This document shows positions 484-41,702 of a DNA stretch of 50,757 nucleotides, piece after piece; the stretch's first letter is position 1, and each line of letters starts with the position of its first letter. Position numbers and translations under genes: made by a program. The stretch is from an uncultured bacterium. Lineage in GTDB: Bacteria > Patescibacteriota > Minisyncoccia > Moranbacterales > UBA2206. Where the stretch lies: NCBI GenBank assembly GCA_903831805.1, contig CAIKZD010000006.1:1-50757 (forward strand), read 5' to 3'. The notes beneath the pieces were generated by a model. The model was given only the letters and a program-made list of their open reading frames with translations, did no database searches and was not told where the DNA came from.

Positions 484-823
484 CGCAAGACTCCTTTTCT
501 GAATTGACGTTCAAATCAATAGATTATCTACATTTTCAATCTAGTTTCCCACAAGCAAACGCCTCACCTCCTTTTTTATGTTGAGTTTTATTGTTTAAGA
601 ACTGCTGGGAGTATGCTAGGGGGGGCGGAAGTTGTCAAGGAGAAGAAGATTTGTTAAAAAAGTTATAACGAAAAAAGTTTATTTTTCAAGTCGAGTTTCG
701 CGACCAGTATAATGATTTTTCCTTATGCAAATATACTAAATATCGTCCCAAAACCCTACTCTTTACAAAACCGAAATTTTCCTGTAAAATCGTTAATCAG
801 TATAACACTTCTTCAAAAATCCA

Positions 824-3679
824 ATGCCAAAATCCAAATCAACTACCACGAAGCTGCCTAAAGCGACCGTGGGGCAAGCCTCAGTCAAAGTTAAGCGGGA
901 CAAAATCAAAATTTTTGGGGCGCGGGTGAATAATTTGAAAAACATCAGTTTGGAAATTCCGCGGGATAAATTGGTGGTGGTGACAGGACTTTCCGGTTCG
1001 GGAAAATCCTCTTTGGCCTTTGACGTGGTGCACGCGGAAGGCAACCGGCGCTATTTGGAAAGCATGTCCAGTTATGTACGGCATTTTCTGGAAATTTCCG
1101 GCAAGCCGGACGTGGACAAAATTGAGAACCTTAGTCCGACCATTTCCATTGACCAAAAAAGCATTAGCAAGAGCCCGCGTTCGACGGTCGGGACGATTAC
1201 GGAAATCTATGATTATTTACGGGTGATGTTCGCTAAGATCGGCACGCCCTATTGTCCGCATTGCCGCTTGCCGATGACGCAAAAAAGCAACTCTGAAATT
1301 CTAGAAGAAATTTTTGAGTTGCCGGATAATACTCAACTTGGCATTCTGGCGCGCCTGCGCGAAGAAGGCAAAGACACGCAACAAATTTTGAAAAACATCA
1401 GTCAATTGGGTTATGCCCGGGCGCGGATCAATGGCAAGATCATGTTGATTGCGGACGCGCTGGTTTCCTCGGAAGATTTTTTGGCGGAAAGTATCGAAAT
1501 CGTGGTAGACCGCATCACTTTGAAAACGAAAGCCCCCGACCGGGAAAGAATTCTGGATTCCATTGAAACTGCTTTCCGTTTGGGCAAAGGTTTTATGGCG
1601 ATCAGCATCGATAATGTCGAGAGTCACATTTACAACCAAGATTTTGTGTGCAGCAATTGCTATTTCAAGATTCCGGAAATCACTCCGAAGCATTTTTCTT
1701 TCAATAGTCCGGAAGGGGCGTGCGAACATTGCTCGGGCCTGGGCGTGGTGCGGGAGGTGGACGCGGAGCTGATCATTCCGAACCGTAATTTGTCTTTGGC
1801 GGAAGGCGCTATTTTGCCACTATCCAAATCAGGCGGACGGACCGGCGGGACGAGCAACTATCTGTATAAATTGGAAGAAATCGGTAAGAAAAAAGGCTTT
1901 TCCATTCATGACCCGATCAAGCGCTTAAGTGAAAAAAATTTAGAGATTGTTCTTTATGGCCTCAAAAACGAACATCAGGAAGCCTCCTTTGCCGGCGTAG
2001 TGGATATCATCAAAAAGAAATATAATGAATCCACTTCCGTCACTTTCAGGAAAGAAATTGAAAAGTATATGTTGGAAAAAATTTGCGCTGAATGTGAAGG
2101 GAAAAGAATCAAAAAGGAATACGCGGCGGTTTTGATTTTGGGCCGGTCCATTGCAGATATTGTCAGGCTGGACGTGGAAGCCTTCTTGGCATTTTTGAAA
2201 GACTTTGAAAATTGGCCGCTGGCGAATGTTAAAGTCGAAACGGTCCGGCCCTTGATCAAAGAGATGGTGCAAAAAGCGGCCGCACTTAAAAATGTCGGTT
2301 TGGAATATTTGGAAATTTTTCGCGGAGCTGAATCATTGTCCGGCGGGGAAGGGCAACGCATCCGCTTGGCCACCCAGATCGGTTCGGAATTGTCCGGCAT
2401 CATTTATGTCTTGGACGAACCGTCAGTGGGCTTGCATAGCCGCGACACTAAAAAATTGATTGAGACCATGAAATTCTTGCGGGACAACGGCAACTCTTTG
2501 GTGGTGGTGGAACATGATCGCGATATTATTGAAAACGCCGATTGGATCATTGATATGGGACCGGGGGCGGGGATGGCCGGCGGGGAAGTCATTTTTGAAG
2601 GCGATATCCAAAAATTGAAAAAATCCAAAACTTCGACCGCCAGATTTTTGTCCGGGCAAGAAAAAATCTCGGCGCGAAAAAAACCGCGACCGGGCGCGAA
2701 GAAATATATCGAAATTTTGGGCGCAGAAGAACATAATTTGAAAAACATCGATGTGGCAATTCCACTGGAAAGATTCGTGTCCATTACCGGCGTTTCCGGC
2801 TCGGGCAAATCAACTCTAGTCTCGGATATTCTGGCCGTCGCTTTGTCGCGCCATTTTTTCCGTGCCAAAGCCGAAGCGGGAAAGCATAAAAAAATCAGCG
2901 GCCTCAACTTGATTGACAAAGTGATTAACGTGGATCAGTCGCCGATTGGGCGTACGCCTAGATCAAACGCGGCCACTTATACTGGCGTTTTTTCCCATAT
3001 CCGGGAACTTTTTGCAGTGACCGAGGAAGCCAAGAATCGCGGTTATGACGCCAGCCGTTTCAGTTTCAACATGAAGGGCGGGCGCTGCGAAAGTTGTCAG
3101 GGCGATGGCACGAAAAAAATTGAAATGTATCTTTTGCCGGATATGTATGTCAAATGCGAAGCGTGTAATGGGATGCGCTACAATCAAAAAACGTTGGATA
3201 TTGAATATCAAGGCGTGAATATTTCCGCGGTGTTGGATATGAGCGTATCCTATGCGCTCCGGTTTTTCCATAAGACGCCGCTCGTGGTGGAAAAATTGCG
3301 CACTTTGGAAGAAGTGGGCTTGGGCTATCTGAAGCTCGGACAAAGTGCGACCAATCTGTCCGGCGGGGAAGCTCAACGCATCAAGTTGGCCGCCGAACTG
3401 GCGCGCAAATCTACCGGCCGGACTTTGTATATTTTGGACGAACCGACTATTGGATTGCATTTCGAAGATGTGCGCAAGCTCTTAATGATTCTGGATGCGT
3501 TGGTGGAGAAAGGCAATTCGGTTGTGGTGGTGGAACATAACACGGACGTGATCGGTTACAGCGATTGGGTGATTGATCTGGGCCCGGAAGGCGGTCAAGG
3601 CGGAGGCGAAGTCGTCTATGCCGGCGTGCCGGCGGGCTTGAAAAAATGTAAACGAAGTTGGACAGGGAAATATTTATAA
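824..3679 (+). CDS. uvrA: Excinuclease ABC subunit A
   Basis: Two ABC modules ([36 protein letters not shown]), CxxC zinc fingers, [12 protein letters not shown]; 951 aa. Confidence 0.95.
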
Positions 3680-36664: not shown

Positions 36665-37816
36665 ATGCGCATTGCTATTTTCACCAACAACTATCTGCCC
36701 AACCCTTATGGCGTGGCCACTTCGGTGGAAACTTTTCGGCGCGAATTGGAAAAACTGGGCCACCAGGTGTATATTTTTGCGCCCAATTTTCCCGGCTACA
36801 CTGACACAGATGCTCGGGTTTTTCGCTATCCGGCCATTGACATTGAAGTCAAATTTCGTTTTCCCTTGCCTCTGCCCGGATCCTGGAAGATGCGCCGCAT
36901 CTTGAAAAAATTGGATCTGGATATTATCCACGCTCAGCATCCCAATCTCCTCGGCACCACTGCGGCGCGGTGGGCACGGAGAAAAAAAATCCCTTTGGTG
37001 TTCACTTGGCACACACTCTATGACCACTATGTGCATTTTGCGCGTTTTGTGCCTAAGAAAATGACCGCTAGTGTGATCATCGCTCAGGCGGTGCGTTTCG
37101 CCAACCGAGCCGACGCGGTCGTGGTGCCGACGGATTCCATCATTCCAAAATTGCGGGCTTGGGGCGTGACGCAGCAAAATATTTTCCCGGTGGCTACCGG
37201 CGTGGTGGGGGAAGATTTTATAGATTTGGACAGAAATATTATCCGGAAAAAATATGGCATAGCTGCGGATGAAATAGTTTTGTTATCGACGCATCGGCTA
37301 ACAAGTGAGAAGAACATGGAATTTTTGTTCGGCGCACTCGCGCCGGTTTTGCAGAAAGATCGAGTAAAATTTATAGTAGCGGGGGATGGCAACTTAGTGC
37401 CAAAAATTAAAAAACTCTGCCAAGATAATGGAATGGCGGAAAAAGTCTTTTTTTGCGGCGTAGTGCCGCGAGCGGAAATCAAAAACTATTACGCCGCCGC
37501 GGACATTTTCGTCCACGCGTCGACTTCCGAAACGCAGGGAATGGTGCTCACTGAGGCGATGTATTGCGGCCTCCCAATCGTGGCGGTCAACGCCACCGGT
37601 GCCAGCAGTTTGGTGCTCAACAACGGCAATGGTTTTTTAGTAGAAGAGAACGAAAAAGAATTTGCGGAGGCAGTTTTAAAATTGATTGATGATAAAGATC
37701 TCCGCCAAAAGTTCGGCGAAACTTCGGCGCGGATTGCCAAATTGCAATTCACCTCGGAGATTTGTGCGAGGAAGATGGTGGAGGTGTATGAAAATCTTCT
37801 CAAGGCGAGGCCTTAG
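36665..37816 (+). CDS. GT4 glycosyltransferase (diacylglycerol glucosyltransferase-like)
   Basis: MRIAIFTNNYLP..GV, HTLY, SETQGMVLTEAM. Confidence 0.88.
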   Translation: MRIAIFTNNYLPNPYGVATSVETFRRELEKLGHQVYIFAPNFPGYTDTDARVFRYPAIDIEVKFRFPLPLPGSWKMRRILKKLDLDIIHAQHPNLLGTTAARWARRKKIPLVFTWHTLYDHYVHFARFVPKKMTASVIIAQAVRFANRADAVVVPTDSIIPKLRAWGVTQQNIFPVATGVVGEDFIDLDRNIIRKKYGIAADEIVLLSTHRLTSEKNMEFLFGALAPVLQKDRVKFIVAGDGNLVPKIKKLCQDNGMAEKVFFCGVVPRAEIKNYYAAADIFVHASTSETQGMVLTEAMYCGLPIVAVNATGASSLVLNNGNGFLVEENEKEFAEAVLKLIDDKDLRQKFGETSARIAKLQFTSEICARKMVEVYENLLKARP

Positions 37817-38560
37817 GATTATGGTGTATAATTAATCCATGCAAAGAAAAATACCATTTGTTAATGACGAATATCACCACATTTTCAATCGCGGTACGGA
37901 TAAGCGGCCTATTTTTCTTGACCAAGCTGATTATGAAAGGTATCTAATATCAATGTATTTTTTAAATACGCAAGAAGGAAATTTGATGGCTAAATGGCGA
38001 GATTTTAAGAGGCTTAATCGCGCGGCTAGAATTTCTGATTTTAAAATTATAAAACCGGAAGAAAGGTTGGTTGATATTATTTGTTATTGCCTTAATGAAA
38101 ATCACTATCATAAAATTTTAAAACAACTCAAGGATAAGGGAATAGAAACATTCATGCAAAAACTGGGAACGAGTTATGCAATGTATTTTAATAAGAAATA
38201 TAACCGAGTAGGGGCTCTTTTTCAGGGTCCATTCAAGTCTGTTTTCATAGATTCAAATGAATATTTTTTGTACTTATCAGTTTATGTTAATGCTAATAAT
38301 TTTATCCATGACTACAAAAGATTCCAAGGCGAGGCCTTGGGAATTTCCCAAGGCCTCGCCTTGGAATCTTGGCAGTATTGCAGCTTGCCGAATTATTTTG
38401 GACAAAGAGATGGAGTGTTGTGCAATATGAAGCCTATTCTTGATCAATTTAAGAACATTGAAGAGTATAAAGAATTTGTACAGAATAATGCTTTGTATTT
38501 AAAGGATAAAAAAGAATTGGAAAAACTTATCTTGGAATAGTATCCTAAGGCCTCGCCTTG
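37801..38560. mobile_element. RAYT locus: tyrosine transposase gene between perfect 19-bp inverted REP copies
   Basis: caaggcgaggccttaggat at 37801-37819 and its reverse complement at 38542-38560. Confidence 0.8.
37839..38540 (+). CDS. REP-associated tyrosine transposase (Y1_Tnp, IS200-like HUH)
   Basis: YHHIFNRG, YCLNENHYH (HUH), YFNKKYNRVGALFQGPFK, YVNAN. Confidence 0.88.
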   Translation: MQRKIPFVNDEYHHIFNRGTDKRPIFLDQADYERYLISMYFLNTQEGNLMAKWRDFKRLNRAARISDFKIIKPEERLVDIICYCLNENHYHKILKQLKDKGIETFMQKLGTSYAMYFNKKYNRVGALFQGPFKSVFIDSNEYFLYLSVYVNANNFIHDYKRFQGEALGISQGLALESWQYCSLPNYFGQRDGVLCNMKPILDQFKNIEEYKEFVQNNALYLKDKKELEKLILE

Positions 38561-38607
38561 TTTATTTGTTTAAAATACTTTATTTAAGCCAATAAAATCA
38601 CAATCAC

Positions 38608-38636: not shown

Positions 38637-38723
38637 ACTATATTATTTTCAAATGCGAAGATAATCCCTGACCCCAGGGCGAGGGGTGGAAAATTGGGCG
38701 AATGAGCCTGAGAGGAGACAGTC

Positions 38724-39644
38724 ATGGGAGATGTGAAAGAAGTTCTTGAAAAATTAAGGGGCATAGATGCGTCTAAACTGCTTGCCGTGGTTGATTTGTT
38801 CGGAAGCAGGGAAATATTAGAGGCGTGTCTGCGTGGCGAGAAAAGGATGACATTGGAAGATGTTATTCGAAAACTTTTCGATCACACCGGCCGTTGCATC
38901 CCGCAACATCTTGGCATAACGAAAAAAGCATGTGACGAGAATCGTGATTTTCACGTTGAATCTTCTATGCGGTATTATGCGACAACTCACGAGCGACTGG
39001 TAAGTTCTTTTCCAGAAGGAACAGAATTTCTTTCAGCAGAAGAATTTGAAAGAAATGCGGAAACGCTCAAGGCAAAATGCATTAGTCATGAACTGATTGG
39101 AAATTTTTTCCAGCGTGCTTGGCCAATTCTTCTGCCTAAACATGATGCGCGAGAGAACTATGGTGCGTCAATGCAGGATTTTATCTTGCCGGCAGTTAAA
39201 GACGCGTATAGAAGGCAGTTTCCCGAGCGAAAATTCACAAATCATCGCGACGGAGAACTGGCCGAAAAAGTTTCCATCATTTCGGGCACCGGTCATGACG
39301 AAGTGGTATCGCTGATGGCTGAAAAATCAGTCGTGGCGTGGTATTCGCCAAATCCATTTCAAGGATTTTCAATTTTCGCCCAGCGCGAAGCGATGAAAAT
39401 TCTGGTACAATATGGATTTTCGTTGGCTGGCGGGGTGGATACGGGAGTTGCAGCTGTTGCCTATACGGGTGAAATGGCGCGCGACTACAAAACGCCGGCA
39501 TGTACATGCAGTGCCATTTCTTGGCGGTCCGCTGACTATTCGCTCCACTTCAACGCGCATGACGACGAGTTCCGCTTCGGCAGCACTGATAACTTGGCTG
39601 ACGCGAATGACCTCAACTCGGGCGGTCTTGTCCTCTTCAGGTAG
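38724..39644 (+). CDS. DGR target protein (C-terminal VR, presumed C-type-lectin-like fold)
   Basis: Last 42 codons are the VR; no signal peptide or TM seen. Confidence 0.9.
   Translation: MGDVKEVLEKLRGIDASKLLAVVDLFGSREILEACLRGEKRMTLEDVIRKLFDHTGRCIPQHLGITKKACDENRDFHVESSMRYYATTHERLVSSFPEGTEFLSAEEFERNAETLKAKCISHELIGNFFQRAWPILLPKHDARENYGASMQDFILPAVKDAYRRQFPERKFTNHRDGELAEKVSIISGTGHDEVVSLMAEKSVVAWYSPNPFQGFSIFAQREAMKILVQYGFSLAGGVDTGVAAVAYTGEMARDYKTPACTCSAISWRSADYSLHFNAHDDEFRFGSTDNLADANDLNSGGLVLFR
39516..39642 (+). repeat. DGR variable repeat (VR)
   Basis: 127-bp ungapped match to 40028-40154 with 9 mismatches. Confidence 0.95.
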
Positions 39645-39714
39645 CGCCGTATTTTGTACTTTGGAACTTTTTCTCTTGGACTGGAACTTTGGTTTTGGTC
39701 TTTGGGAGAAAATG

Positions 39715-39746
39715 GGAGATGTGAATTATATTCTATTCACATCTCC
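39715..39746. other. Hairpin/cruciform downstream of the VR (candidate DGR homing element or terminator)
   Basis: ggagatgtgaat-tatattct-attcacatctcc, 12-bp stem followed by Ts. Confidence 0.65.
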
Positions 39747-40027
39747 TTTTATTTTTGCAAAAAATTTGATAGACTAATTTTGAGAGTAGGCTAATGCACA
39801 ACAGTTTACGCCTGCCTGCCGGTAGGCAAGGATTGTTGTCGCCGAAATTCTATGATTTTCATAGAGCATCAGAATCTTGAGATTACGATTTGCTATTTTT
39901 TCAGATCGCAAGAGTGCATGCGAAGATTATAGGCGCTACTTATTTCTTTTCAGCGCTCACTAGGGGCGGAATAAAATTCAGTCTCGTATATTTTTTGCGA
40001 GGCGGTGCAATGGACGAAAAGGAATAA

Positions 40028-40154
40028 ATTTCTTGGCAGTCCGCTGACTATTCGCTCAACTTCAACGCGAATGACGACGAGTTCAACTTCGACAACACTG
40101 ATAACTTGGCTGACGCGAATGACAACAACTCGGGCGGTCTTGTCCTCTTCAGGT
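40028..40154 (+). repeat. DGR template repeat (TR)
   Basis: AAC-rich; every VR mismatch lies at a TR adenine. Confidence 0.95.
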
Positions 40155-40165
40155 TGCGCTTAAAA

Positions 40166-40192
40166 AAGAGTCCTGATTTTTTCAGGACTCTT
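40166..40192. terminator. Hairpin between TR and the convergent avd gene
   Basis: aagagtcctga-ttttt-tcaggactctt flanked by A and T runs. Confidence 0.65.
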
Positions 40193-40197
40193 ATCTT

Positions 40198-40548
40198 TTA
40201 GTTGAAAGATTTTTGCCAGCCACCAATCATCCGGCCGATTTCTTGGATTTGTTTTTGCAGGGTTAGATATTTTTTATTGTCTAGCATATTGATTTCATTG
40301 GCTAGGCGGATGAAAATTTTCAAAGTGTCGAATTTGATATTCGCTTTTCGGATGTAAGCAATCTTTTCCGGCTTGGGCGCACTGCCGGCGGCAATTAATA
40401 ATTCCAATACAGACAGAATATATAGTTCGCATTTTTCTCCCAGTGTGTATTTATCTTTTTTGGGAAATAATTTAGAGTAGGCATAGAAACTTTTATACAG
40501 CTCGTAAACTTTTTTAATAACCGGTAAATTATTATTGTAATCACTCAT
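40198..40548 (-). CDS. avd: DGR accessory variability determinant (bAvd-like four-helix bundle)
   Basis: 116 aa, basic; LPVIKKVYELYK, FPKKDKYTLG, EIGRMIGGW. Confidence 0.88.
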   Translation of the reverse strand: MSDYNNNLPVIKKVYELYKSFYAYSKLFPKKDKYTLGEKCELYILSVLELLIAAGSAPKPEKIAYIRKANIKFDTLKIFIRLANEINMLDNKKYLTLQKQIQEIGRMIGGWQKSFN

Positions 40549-40552
40549 AAAT

Positions 40553-41627
40553 ATGTACGATAAATTAGTTAGTTTAGAAAACATTTTTATTAGTTGGAAA
40601 GAGTTTAAAAATGGCAAGCAGAGTAAGCCTGATGTCCAATTGTTTGAAAGATTTTTAGAGGATAATATTTTCGCTCTTCAAAAAGAGCTACAGGATTATA
40701 CTTATTGTCACGGCAAGTATAGAACATTTTTCATCCAAGACCCGAAACCAAGAATGATCAGCAAGGCTATTGTCAAAGACAGACTAGTGCATCACTTGGT
40801 GTTCAGGGAGCTTTATGCTGTTTTCAATTCTTCTTTCATTTTCCATTCATATTCATCTAGAGAAAAGAAAGGGTCTCACGCGGCTGTCAAAAATCTTTCA
40901 AAATGCTTGCGTAAAACAAGCGAGAATTACAATCATCCAGTCTATATTCTGAAATGCGACGTTAGAAAATTCTTTCAAAGCATGAATCACAAAAAACTTC
41001 TAGAGTTGATTGAGTGCAAAATTTTTGATAAAAATTTTTTGTGGTTGATTGAGGAGATAATAGGGAGTTTTTCTTCTGCTCCTCTTTCAACTTTGCAATT
41101 TACAGAAAATCCCTGGGGGGGGGGATTTAAAGGGCGGAAAAAATGAAAAAATAGGTTTGCCGATCGGCAATATTACTTCGCAAATTTTTGCCAACATATA
41201 CCTTAATGAATTGGACTGGTTTATAAAAGGAAAACTAAAAGTAAAAAATTATTTCCGTTATGCCGATGATTTTGTTATTGTCCATCCCAATAAGAGATAT
41301 CTTTTGGATACCTTGGAAGAAATTAAAATCTTTTTAAAAACCGAATTGAGTCTTCAGCTTCATCCGAAAAAAGTTTCTATTGGGAAATTTCATCGAGGTG
41401 TCGATTTCTTGGGCTATGCTTTGTTCCCTCATTATAGCGTATTGCGGACCAAAACTAAAAAAAGAATGTTTAAAAAAATATCGCTAAAACAAAAGATGTG
41501 TCGCGAGGGATTAGTTTTTAAAAAATCGCTCAATCAAAGTGTGCAATCGTATTTGGGGGTATTGAAACATTGCGAAGGATATGGAATAAAAAAAGAATTG
41601 GGTGAACTAATTCGCAGGAAAATTTAG
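40553..41627 (+). pseudogene. DGR reverse transcriptase, split by a frameshift at a G10 tract (41115-41124)
   Basis: ORF 40553-41146 (KDRLVHH, SYSSR..KGSH, KCDVRKFF) and downstream frame (GLPIGNITSQ, YADD, DFLGY). Removing one G fuses them into 357 aa. Confidence 0.9.
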
Positions 41628-41638
41628 TGATATTTAAG

Positions 41639-41691
41639 GCTAAATCAAGGCGAGGCCTTGGGAAATTCCCAAGGCCTCGCCTTGATTTAGC
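41639..41691. repeat. REP doublet (53-nt palindrome) of the RAYT family
   Basis: 26-bp perfect arms containing caaggcgaggccttgggaa. Confidence 0.85.
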
Positions 41692-41702
41692 TGTCCAGTC
41701 GT

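Follow-up and report, generated by a model that had tools for sequence, protein, structure and literature searches.

The window, by which we mean the whole stretch of 50,757 nucleotides that was analysed, contains a run of ten G residues inside a complete DGR, which has a reverse transcriptase (RT), a TR/VR pair that differs at adenines and an Avd protein. The parts of the element are the following:

38724–39644, plus strand: DGR target gene, an open reading frame of 306 aa with the VR at its 3′ end
39516–39647, plus strand: VR, a 132-nt repeat with 92% identity to the TR
40028–40159, plus strand: TR, the repeat partner of the VR
40201–40548, minus strand: avd, divergent from the RT gene (PF22296 bAvd; NF033474 DivGenRetAVD)
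40553–41146, plus strand: N-terminal part of the RT in the G10 reading, 197 aa, with its TGA stop at 41144–41146
41115–41124, plus strand: simple-sequence tract of ten G, proposed as the switch; G9 or G12 would be in frame
41064–41627, plus strand: C-terminal part of the RT in the +1-displaced frame, with GLPIGN, YADD and DFLGY and its stop at 41625–41627
41639–41691, no strand assigned: perfect 26-nt inverted repeat directly after the RT stop, terminator-like

Nine of the ten mismatches between TR and VR fall at TR adenines, the remaining one being a T at the 3′ edge. The Avd product scored 87.7 bits against NF033474 (cut-off 80) and 73.8 bits against PF22296 (cut-off 40), and its gene is placed between the TR and the RT gene, with its ATG on the opposite strand, 4 nt from the RT ATG. 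The 306-aa target product had no match in Pfam or NCBIfam, and Rfam, whose matches in the window were 10 tRNAs only, gave no family in the DGR region. The inverted repeat that follows the RT gene is one copy of a dispersed palindromic element.

The G10 tract and the reading frame of the RT

The RVT_1 profile is divided between the two RT frames, positions 8–100 matching the N-terminal open reading frame and positions 109–204 the C-terminal frame. The best PDB relative of the RT is 8ub7_A, a 328-aa 'Reverse transcriptase' (E = 1.7e-38), which we take to be the Bordetella-phage DGR enzyme; the N-terminal part aligns with residues 9–160 of this protein and the C-terminal part with residues 174–285. 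As assembled, the N-terminal frame ends in ...ENPWGGGFKGRKK, so that the protein made from G10 stops 7 codons past the tract and before the catalytic YADD box is reached. When the gene was translated with TGGG decoded as W at the tract, this one four-letter step gave a single RT of 357 residues with no further stop, carrying both GLPIGNITSQ and YADD; the IGxxxSQ motif is specific to DGR-type RTs. Frame arithmetic puts G9 and G12 in frame, with a full RT of 357 and 358 aa, respectively, and G10, G11 and G13 out of frame. The sequence-only reading had proposed that G10 splits the RT into two frames and that G9 or G12 would yield one RT of 357 aa with no other lesion; the former is confirmed by the positions of the tract and of the two open reading frames, the latter by the read-through translation together with the arithmetic. 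We also considered, and rejected, the possibility that the split RT works as two polypeptides: none of the start codons ATG, GTG and TTG precedes the Leu codon of GLPIGN in the C-terminal frame, some orthologues have CTT, GTA or GTG at this codon, and intact single-chain homologues exist.

A G10 run was said to be striking in so AT-rich a gene, and the composition agrees: the G+C content of the RT gene is 34%, and such a run is expected about 8e-5 times in the gene and about 0.37 times in the 1.035-Mb genome. The genome holds three runs of at least 10 G/C, all in DGR loci, and five of its nine G/C runs of at least 8 lie in DGR loci (taken as the RT plus 100 nt upstream, 0.70% of the genome; binomial P = 2e-9). 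Four tracts paralogous to the one in the window are placed at C4:1039, C7:33575, C17:10073 and C22:8398 of this genome. No MutS_V domain was found in this 99.7%-complete genome, and one is present in 11 of 14 control genomes. TR/VR mismatches are biased to adenines in each of the 7 DGR cassettes that the genome carries, and therefore these systems have been active.

The tract sits in a flexible surface loop of the RT, just before the GLPIGNxTSQ motif. This site falls in a stretch that does not align to 8ub7_A (38 aa here versus 13 aa there), 16 intact homologues have loops of about 4 to about 40 aa, and residues 177–190 in a structure model of the intact orthologue L062 have pLDDT values below 50. 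This agrees with the expectation that changes in length would be tolerated at this point.

Strong matches to the stretch were found in 8 public runs, and we compared Logan contigs over positions 38700–41700 in 4 public metagenome runs from 3 studies (2016, 2017 and 2020). The contigs of the 4 runs had no substitution at all in 3001 nt, and the sole indel within the DGR was the tract itself, which read G10 (depth 14.5), G11 (8.7) and G12 (7.7) in three runs and at least G12 in the fourth, where the contig ends in the tract; these lengths are contig consensus at depth 7.7–14.5, and long G runs are error-prone in short reads and in library PCR. In 3 of the 4 runs the contigs break off at the tract, which suggests mixed tract lengths within one sample. 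The VR consensus was the same in all 4 runs, including the in-frame G12 run, an observation that counts against a switch, bearing in mind that contigs hide minority variants.

Repeat tracts in related DGR loci

A search for orthologues in 319 genomes of the order gave 6 with a match at E ≤ 1e-60, and the five orthologues besides the window gene come from other genera. All six carry a repeat at the same site of the RT, namely G10, G10, G10, G9, (AG)9 and G7, and all six RT genes are out of frame as assembled, five needing a −1/+2 change and one a +1/−2 change. With synonymous sites near saturation, dN/dS was 0.07–0.20 for the N-terminal half and 0.09–0.26 for the C-terminal half; this purifying selection on both halves indicates that both are still used as coding sequence. 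These gene comparisons show that the tract or an equivalent (AG)n is kept across genera while both halves of the RT stay under purifying selection. The Avd proteins of the orthologues L002, L053 and L055 are 86–89% identical to that of the window.

Among 137 distinct Patescibacteria-type RT loci, a simple repeat is present in 102, lying in the mid-gene loop in 25, to which all five close orthologues belong, and at the 5′ junction of avd and RT in 77, with none having both and 35 having neither (the short metagenome loci L051 and L052, which do not cover the site, were excluded from every count). Repeat density was 0.54 per kb in the mid-gene window and 3.35 per kb in the 5′ window, as against 0.010 per kb in the other parts of the RT and 0.014 per kb in the flanks (288 kb), which corresponds to an enrichment over the flanks of about 40-fold at the mid-gene site and about 240-fold at the 5′ site. 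Repeats are therefore enriched in the pre-GLPIGN loop of homologues, and both comparisons that the sequence-only reading had suggested, this one and that of tract lengths, turned out in its favour. The length of the tract in the metagenome contigs was not G9 throughout, nor was it a fixed G10 without repeats in homologues, the two findings that the sequence-only reading had held to be incompatible with a switch.

In most relatives the tract lies where avd and the RT gene, which diverge, overlap at their 5′ ends. The units found in the tracts are poly-G, (AG)n, (CT)n and (GT)n, and the occurrence of different units at the same two sites implies that the property they share is slippage-prone repetition. 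At the 5′ site, the frame set for avd agrees with that set for the RT in 21 of 22 single-valued loci (20 of 21 when the duplicate L105 is left out). This concordance arises because the complement of each ATG is a CAT that the other gene reads in frame as His; having a geometric origin, it is therefore not independent evidence of selection.

A candidate switch of hypermutation and alternative explanations

We consider it probable that the G10 tract switches the hypermutation enzyme ON and OFF heritably, through slipped-strand mispairing. That the mutator could be phase-variable in this way had been the central proposal made from the sequence, and it is supported by the frame arithmetic, the repeats in orthologues and the site-specific enrichment. 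The tract would be a conserved hypermutable element that sets the frame of the RT. Without MutS, slipped-strand mispairing at replication would shift its length by at least one base at high frequency, and each cell lineage would turn the RT ON and OFF in a heritable and reversible manner, adenine mutagenesis of the VR following suit. OFF cells would retain their VR allele and an ON minority would diversify it.

The window is probably one instance of a lineage-wide design, in which most DGRs of the Patescibacteria type have a poly-G or dinucleotide tract that gates either the mid-gene loop of the RT or the antisense overlap of avd and RT at their 5′ coding ends. In the latter layout a single tract would set the frame of avd and RT together, one poly-G/poly-C run coding for Gly in one gene and for Pro in the other. 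Because most relatives have a similar repeat at either site, cells probably switch their mutation machine at random. We are evenly divided on the broader idea that the DGRs of CPR bacteria are two-tier diversity generators, each cassette having its own stochastic tract switch that is selected for mutability. A cell with seven cassettes might then undergo independent bursts of hypermutation in each of them, after which the result would be frozen.

The main alternative, which we regard as unlikely, is programmed recoding, in which the tract is one base too long and slippage by RNA polymerase, or +1 slippage by the ribosome, steadily yields full-length RT in small amount. In that case the tract would serve as an attenuator rather than a heritable switch, although the same slippage may also add leakiness to an OFF state. 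The tract is about as long as the RNA-DNA hybrid, and the ribosome could slip on GGG-G (CCC-C in avd); homopolymer runs of at least 9 promote transcript slippage, and both CCC-C and GGG-G are +1-slippery. Moreover, five of the six orthologues, three of them with G10, share the −1/+2 offset, and purifying selection acts on both halves even though the poly-G orthologues are all out of frame. The survey points the same way for poly-G, which is skewed to −1/+2. Counting loci in frame, needing −1/+2 and needing +1/−2, in this order, the mid-gene poly-G loci divide 0/6/2 (with the three G10 among the six) and the 5′ poly-G loci 8/30/15, and the dinucleotide tracts, at 6/7/4 mid-gene and 2/3/3 at the 5′ site, are unskewed. 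For the 61 loci with a 5′ tract and an unambiguous Avd start, the phase skew has a chi-square P of 0.0012, calculated on loci that are related and not independent (L105 duplicates L007). The offset of mid-gene poly-G thus looks more fixed than random switching predicts.

However, the offset that a programmed frameshift would conserve is spread over all three phases, 6/13/6 for the 25 mid-gene tracts and 10/33/18 at the 5′ site, with 6 mid-gene and 10 5′ loci in frame. L056 and L064 need +1/−2, as do C22, L013, L019, L022 and 14 others at the 5′ site. In addition, (AG)n, (CT)n and (GT)n, which are poor substrates for single-base slippage, substitute for poly-G, and the length of the tract differs between assemblies at the level of DNA. 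Programmed +1 frameshifting and transcriptional slippage are exemplified by prfB, dnaX and IS elements. The arrangement described here resembles them in its conserved out-of-frame homopolymer with both parts selected, but differs in that the offset varies, dinucleotides replace poly-G and in-frame alleles exist.

It is quite improbable, in our view, that the repeat is a cis-acting element of the DGR, for instance a structure or a binding site for a protein, located in the DNA or in the TR-RT transcript, with an incidental effect on frame. What speaks for such an element is strand and length: read on the RT sense strand, the 74 mononucleotide tracts are without exception runs of G, never of C, 21 of the 29 dinucleotide tracts consist of purines only, and mononucleotide lengths bunch at 9–10 (51 of 74). 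Nevertheless, the RT sense strand also has (CT)n tracts (5) and (GT)n tracts (3), the repeat occupies two alternative places that are never used together, it is absent from 35 of the 137 loci, short, stable, in-frame remnants, (AG)3 and (AG)4, occur at the site in L061 and L062, and the Rfam search of the DGR region produced no family.

We judge it very unlikely that the tract is an artefact of assembly or sequencing and that the true length is G9 or G12 with the RT intact. Homopolymers of at least 10 are indeed hard for short reads, and the contig sets differ in tract length, one of the loose ends after the tract being messy. On the other hand, the orthologues with (AG)9 and G7, tracts that are called reliably from short reads, are likewise out of frame; the frame is broken in 19 of the 25 loci with a mid-gene tract, compared with 3 of the 110 loci without one, the halves being in one frame in the other 107; independent MAGs from many studies share the feature; and a model of errors leaves unexplained why the runs occur only at these sites. 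Finally, an ordinary pseudogene, that is, a dead RT in a decaying DGR, would agree with a gene that is out of frame and a VR consensus that stayed constant across samples from 2016 to 2020, but is scarcely credible given that the RT gene has no further lesion, that dN/dS lies far below 1 both before and after the tract in six genera with saturated synonymous sites, that Avd is 68–89% identical across orthologues and that the TR/VR differences are adenine-specific.

Relation to known systems and significance

The element resembles the Bordetella-phage type of DGR in having an RT with IGNxTSQ and YADD, an Avd protein, an adenine-based TR/VR pair and a VR at the 3′ end of the target gene. It differs in the position of avd, which here lies on the opposite strand, divergent, between TR and RT, and in the interruption of the RT by a frame-setting simple repeat; no such tract is known in the phage element.

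The tract itself is reminiscent of the poly-G/C phase-variable contingency loci of Campylobacter, Neisseria, Haemophilus and Bordetella (PMC8355987, PMC5084427, PMC1891110, PMC2831843), with which it shares a run of 8–13 G inside an open reading frame, lengths around 9–10, an ON state at every third length only and a genome without MutS. What is gated in the known loci is mostly a surface structure, a receptor or a restriction-modification enzyme of a host-adapted bacterium, whereas the gene gated here is an engine of targeted hypermutation in free-living or episymbiotic ultra-small freshwater bacteria. Another parallel is offered by the phasevarions, phase-variable DNA methyltransferases (PMC10123105, PMC4525171), in which a repeat tract switches an enzyme that affects many phenotypes, one level above the trait. 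Their output is epigenetic, unlike the one proposed here, which would be the permanent diversification of the ligand-binding region of one protein.

We found no literature linking the RT or avd of DGRs to repeat tracts, phase variation or frameshifts, and supplements might note fragmented RTs. The available text of Roux et al. 2021 (PMC8144416) describes a Patescibacteria-restricted clade 2 and classes DGRs as active or inactive, and contains no mention of repeats. Gene callers and DGR finders will score RT and avd genes of this kind as fragments or pseudogenes, and 'inactive' DGRs of this lineage in metagenome surveys may be in the OFF phase.

The proposed switch bears on how cells hold a DGR in check and afterwards preserve a variant that proves useful. 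Mutagenesis at adenines mostly worsens alleles, and an RT that was always on would overwrite a good one. A heritable and reversible tract switch on RT or Avd would answer both the restraint and the retention. If true, it would be, as far as the literature searched shows, the first example in which classical phase variation stands above targeted hypermutation, and contingency loci would then be known from ultra-small uncultivated freshwater bacteria as well.

Reading frames and structure of the RT in the window

The reverse transcriptase (RT) of the diversity-generating retroelement (DGR) contains a run of ten G, proposed by the sequence-only reading as a candidate phase-variable ON/OFF switch for hypermutation. 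The claimed frame split, with a stop at 41144–41146, is borne out, and the two ORFs each match one half of the Pfam RVT_1 profile (positions 8–100 for the first ORF and 109–204 for the second frame).

Features of the DGR
39516–39647, variable repeat (VR), forming the 3' end of the 306-aa target gene
40028–40159, template repeat (TR), differing from VR by nine mismatches at TR adenines and one T at the 3' edge
40201–40548, minus strand, accessory gene avd (NF033474, 87.7 bits, cut-off 80)
40553 (ATG) to 41144–41146 (TGA), plus strand, N-terminal RT ORF, 197 aa, crossing the tract
41064–41627, plus strand, second RT frame, displaced by +1, open, bearing GLPIGN, YADD and DFLGY
41115–41124, plus strand, run of ten G (G10)

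The RT sits beside avd, whose ATG lies four bases from its own, and belongs to a complete DGR. In-frame tract lengths are G9 and G12: a read-through translation with a four-letter step at the tract gives, as had been claimed, a single RT of 357 residues with no further stop. A G10 run was also rightly described as striking in this gene, which has 34% G+C and in which such a run is expected about 8e-5 times. The view that the tract lies in a length-tolerant linker just before GLPIGN agrees with structural data. Among solved structures, the 328-aa 'Reverse transcriptase' of 8ub7 aligns with two separate blocks of the read-through RT (residues 2–158 and 197–310), and tract residues 188–190 fall within the 38 unaligned residues between them (13 in the solved chain), a segment of about 4 to about 40 residues among 16 intact homologues. 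In an AlphaFold model of an intact orthologue (L062, mean pLDDT 82), residues 177–190, including the repeat-coded part, have pLDDT below 50.

Just after the RT stop comes a perfect inverted repeat of 26 nt (41639–41691). Related copies at 37804, 38328–38360 and 38543–38563 flank and lie within an ORF (37839–38540) that weakly resembles an IS200-like Y1 transposase (E = 1.3e-4, below cut-off). The 9-nt core of the repeat occurs in 20 copies in the source genome, and contig depth rises to 70–138 at the repeat. The arrangement resembles a REP-type element accompanied by a possible RAYT-like gene.

Simple repeats and their phases across RT loci

RT loci were collected from 61 relatives' genomes, from an order-wide search and by scanning a single genome of each species. 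This last source gave 80 loci, titled mostly as Patescibacteria/CPR (Moranbacteria, Parcubacteria, Magasanikbacteria, Uhrbacteria, Berkelbacteria and others), with few records titled Gammaproteobacteria, Actinomycetota or just 'bacterium'. Dropping three duplicates left 137 distinct loci. Of the loci fetched, 127 have an Avd homologue adjoining the RT. A simple repeat was found in the 170 nt that precede RT residue 1 (the 5' site, at the avd/RT junction) in 77 loci and in the mid-gene window in 25, never at both sites, while 35 loci had none. Units were poly-G (74), (GA/AG)n (21), (CT)n (5) and (GT)n (3); G runs measured 7 to 13, with 9 or 10 in 51 of the 74. The enrichment in the pre-GLPIGN loop that the sequence-only reading had raised is evident in those 25 loci (0.54 versus 0.010–0.014 per kb).

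Density of simple repeats
5' window: 3.35 per kb
Mid-gene window: 0.54 per kb
Remaining RT: 0.010 per kb
Flanks (288 kb): 0.014 per kb

In a more distant RT (L048, G017:C12; open frame of 427 aa), an in-frame (AG)23 lies 384 nt into the gene and would be a third repeat site, at another mid-gene position. A further RT homologue (L003, G016:C1) has one in-frame TGA within its N half.

At loci with a 5' tract, avd is divergent from RT, and the tract sits where the 5' coding ends of the two genes overlap in antisense. Its poly-C encodes Pro codons in avd and, where RT has no start downstream, the same tract also encodes Gly codons in RT. Among 78 rows with a 5' repeat (L105 duplicates L007), we scored the 61 in which an Avd-like frame runs antisense for 90 codons or more and the phase of the upstream ATG is single and unambiguous; 7 others were ambiguous, 2 had no ATG and 8 had no long antisense frame. 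RT and Avd are in frame at the same tract length in 21 of 22 single-valued cases, and in L031 both are in frame, at G9. The frames are coupled because, opposite each ATG, the other gene has a His CAT codon in register; as this follows from geometry, it is a design property and not separate evidence of selection. The layout is that of most related DGRs (contigs C4, C7, C17 and C22 of the source genome and loci within L003–L136), of which the window's DGR and its orthologues are a variant, with abutting starts free of a tract and the tract inside RT.

Without a mid-gene repeat, the RT halves share one frame in 107 of 110 loci. With one (n = 25), they share a frame in 6, and -1/+2 is required by 13 and +1/-2 by 6 (in that order, dinucleotide 6/7/4 and poly-G 0/6/2), and the scored 5' rows divide into 10, 33 and 18 (poly-G 8/30/15, dinucleotide 2/3/3). 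In-frame alleles are under-represented over both sites (16 of 86 scored tracts). At the mid-gene site, L061 and L062 have only short repeats, (AG)3 and (AG)4, both in frame; these remnants look like stabilised ON alleles. Three phases, several units and short fixed remnants are the pattern of a contingency locus across strains, unlike that of a recoding signal, whose offset would be fixed. Transcript or ribosomal slippage is nevertheless a minor possibility, perhaps contributing as a leaky OFF state, and it would suit the surplus of tracts in the 'one too many' phase: poly-G is skewed to -1/+2 at both sites and dinucleotide tracts are even. Less probable still is a nucleic-acid role of the tract, suggested by the strict rule that all 74 mononucleotide tracts are G, and none poly-C, on the RT sense strand.

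Orthologues, metagenomes and the source genome

Searching 319 genomes of the same order at E ≤ 1e-60 matched the window RT in six, representing six genera and two families. All six have a simple repeat at the same RT position (G10 in the window, then G10, G10, G9, (AG)9 and G7) and are out of frame as assembled, five needing -1/+2 and one +1/-2. A technical artefact is quite improbable: (AG)9 and G7 are reliably called by short reads, so that these out-of-frame orthologues exclude a purely technical frameshift, and the site-specific pattern across the 137 loci also speaks against it. Pairwise dN/dS is 0.07–0.20 for N halves and 0.09–0.26 for C halves, with synonymous sites at or near saturation. 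Both halves have thus long been maintained as coding sequence, the repeat linking their two frames. These values on both sides of the tract, together with the pattern across loci, practically rule out an ordinary pseudogene.

Eight public freshwater or lake metagenome runs from three studies (2016, 2017 and 2020), all in contig form and none recorded as RNA, contained 0.94 or more of the words sampled from 38700–41700. Contigs assembled from four of them showed no substitution relative to the window in 3001 bases, VR included, and the sole indel inside the DGR was at the tract.

Tract in metagenome contigs
X1: G10, depth 14.5, contig continues through the tract
X8: G11, depth 8.7, contig ends at 41136
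X3: G12 (in-frame length), depth 7.7, contig ends at 41134
X7: at least G12, depth 8.1, contig ends at 41124, then two more G and a messy tail

In three of the four runs the contigs end at the tract, which fits mixed tract lengths within samples. Coming from low-depth contigs at a hard homopolymer, these length differences are suggestive and no proof.

The source genome (1.035 Mb, 22 contigs, the window being C6) contains nine G or C homopolymers of at least 8, five of them within RT genes plus 100 nt upstream, which make up 0.70% of the genome (binomial P = 2e-9); all three runs of at least 10 belong to these five. The G10 tract is no chance event. Seven DGR cassettes lie on C6, C17, C7 (twice), C4, C22 and C20, and in every one the TR/VR mismatches are biased to TR adenines (14/14, 21/21 and 16/16 in three of them); six have a simple repeat at RT or avd. 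Four of the six other RT loci have G9–G11 at the avd/RT junction, C7:10200 has an (AG)n tract at the RT 5' end, and the sixth, at a contig end, has no repeat.

Junction tracts in the source genome
C4:1039–1047
C7:33575–33583
C17:10073–10082
C22:8398–8408

MutS_V (PF00488) had no match in this genome, which is 99.7% complete, and was present in 11 of 14 control genomes; strand-slippage loops should therefore stay unrepaired.

Other runs were noted in the same genome. G8 at C22:18316–18323 (L137) splits a small ORF, whose parts would be joined by one G less; the downstream part weakly matches a MazG-like family (PF12643, E = 1.5e-4, below cut-off). This may be a further phase-variable gene, and the C22 DGR is about 9 kb away. 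Three copies of a conserved intergenic motif that resembles a promoter (window 619–625, C3:645–653 and C11:1755–1761) have G runs of G7, G9 and G7, the last on the opposite strand; a uvrA-like ORF (824–3679) begins about 200 nt downstream of the copy in the window. C8 at C7:26047–26054 (L139) is in frame in the assembly and belongs to a Pro/Thr-rich repeat close to the 3' end of an ORF of 890 aa with TPR repeats.

A proposed switch for hypermutation

The tract sets the RT frame; its place is conserved, its length, unit and phase vary, and its length also differs among assemblies that are otherwise identical. Selection acts on the gene. Both poly-G phase variation and DGRs are textbook subjects. 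A full-text literature search, with the main CPR DGR paper and supplementary files outside its scope, found no poly-G phase variation gating a DGR, and the passages available from two DGR surveys and one further paper report no repeat-gated DGR.

We propose, as the most likely mechanism, that strand slippage during replication would alter tract length and, with no MutS, go unrepaired, so that the RT would flip between the full-length enzyme and a 197-aa stump without YADD. Adenine mutagenesis of VR would thereby be ON or OFF in a heritable and reversible manner. OFF as the resting state fits the same VR consensus in four samples, in which contigs hide minority variants, and it fits the rarity of in-frame alleles.
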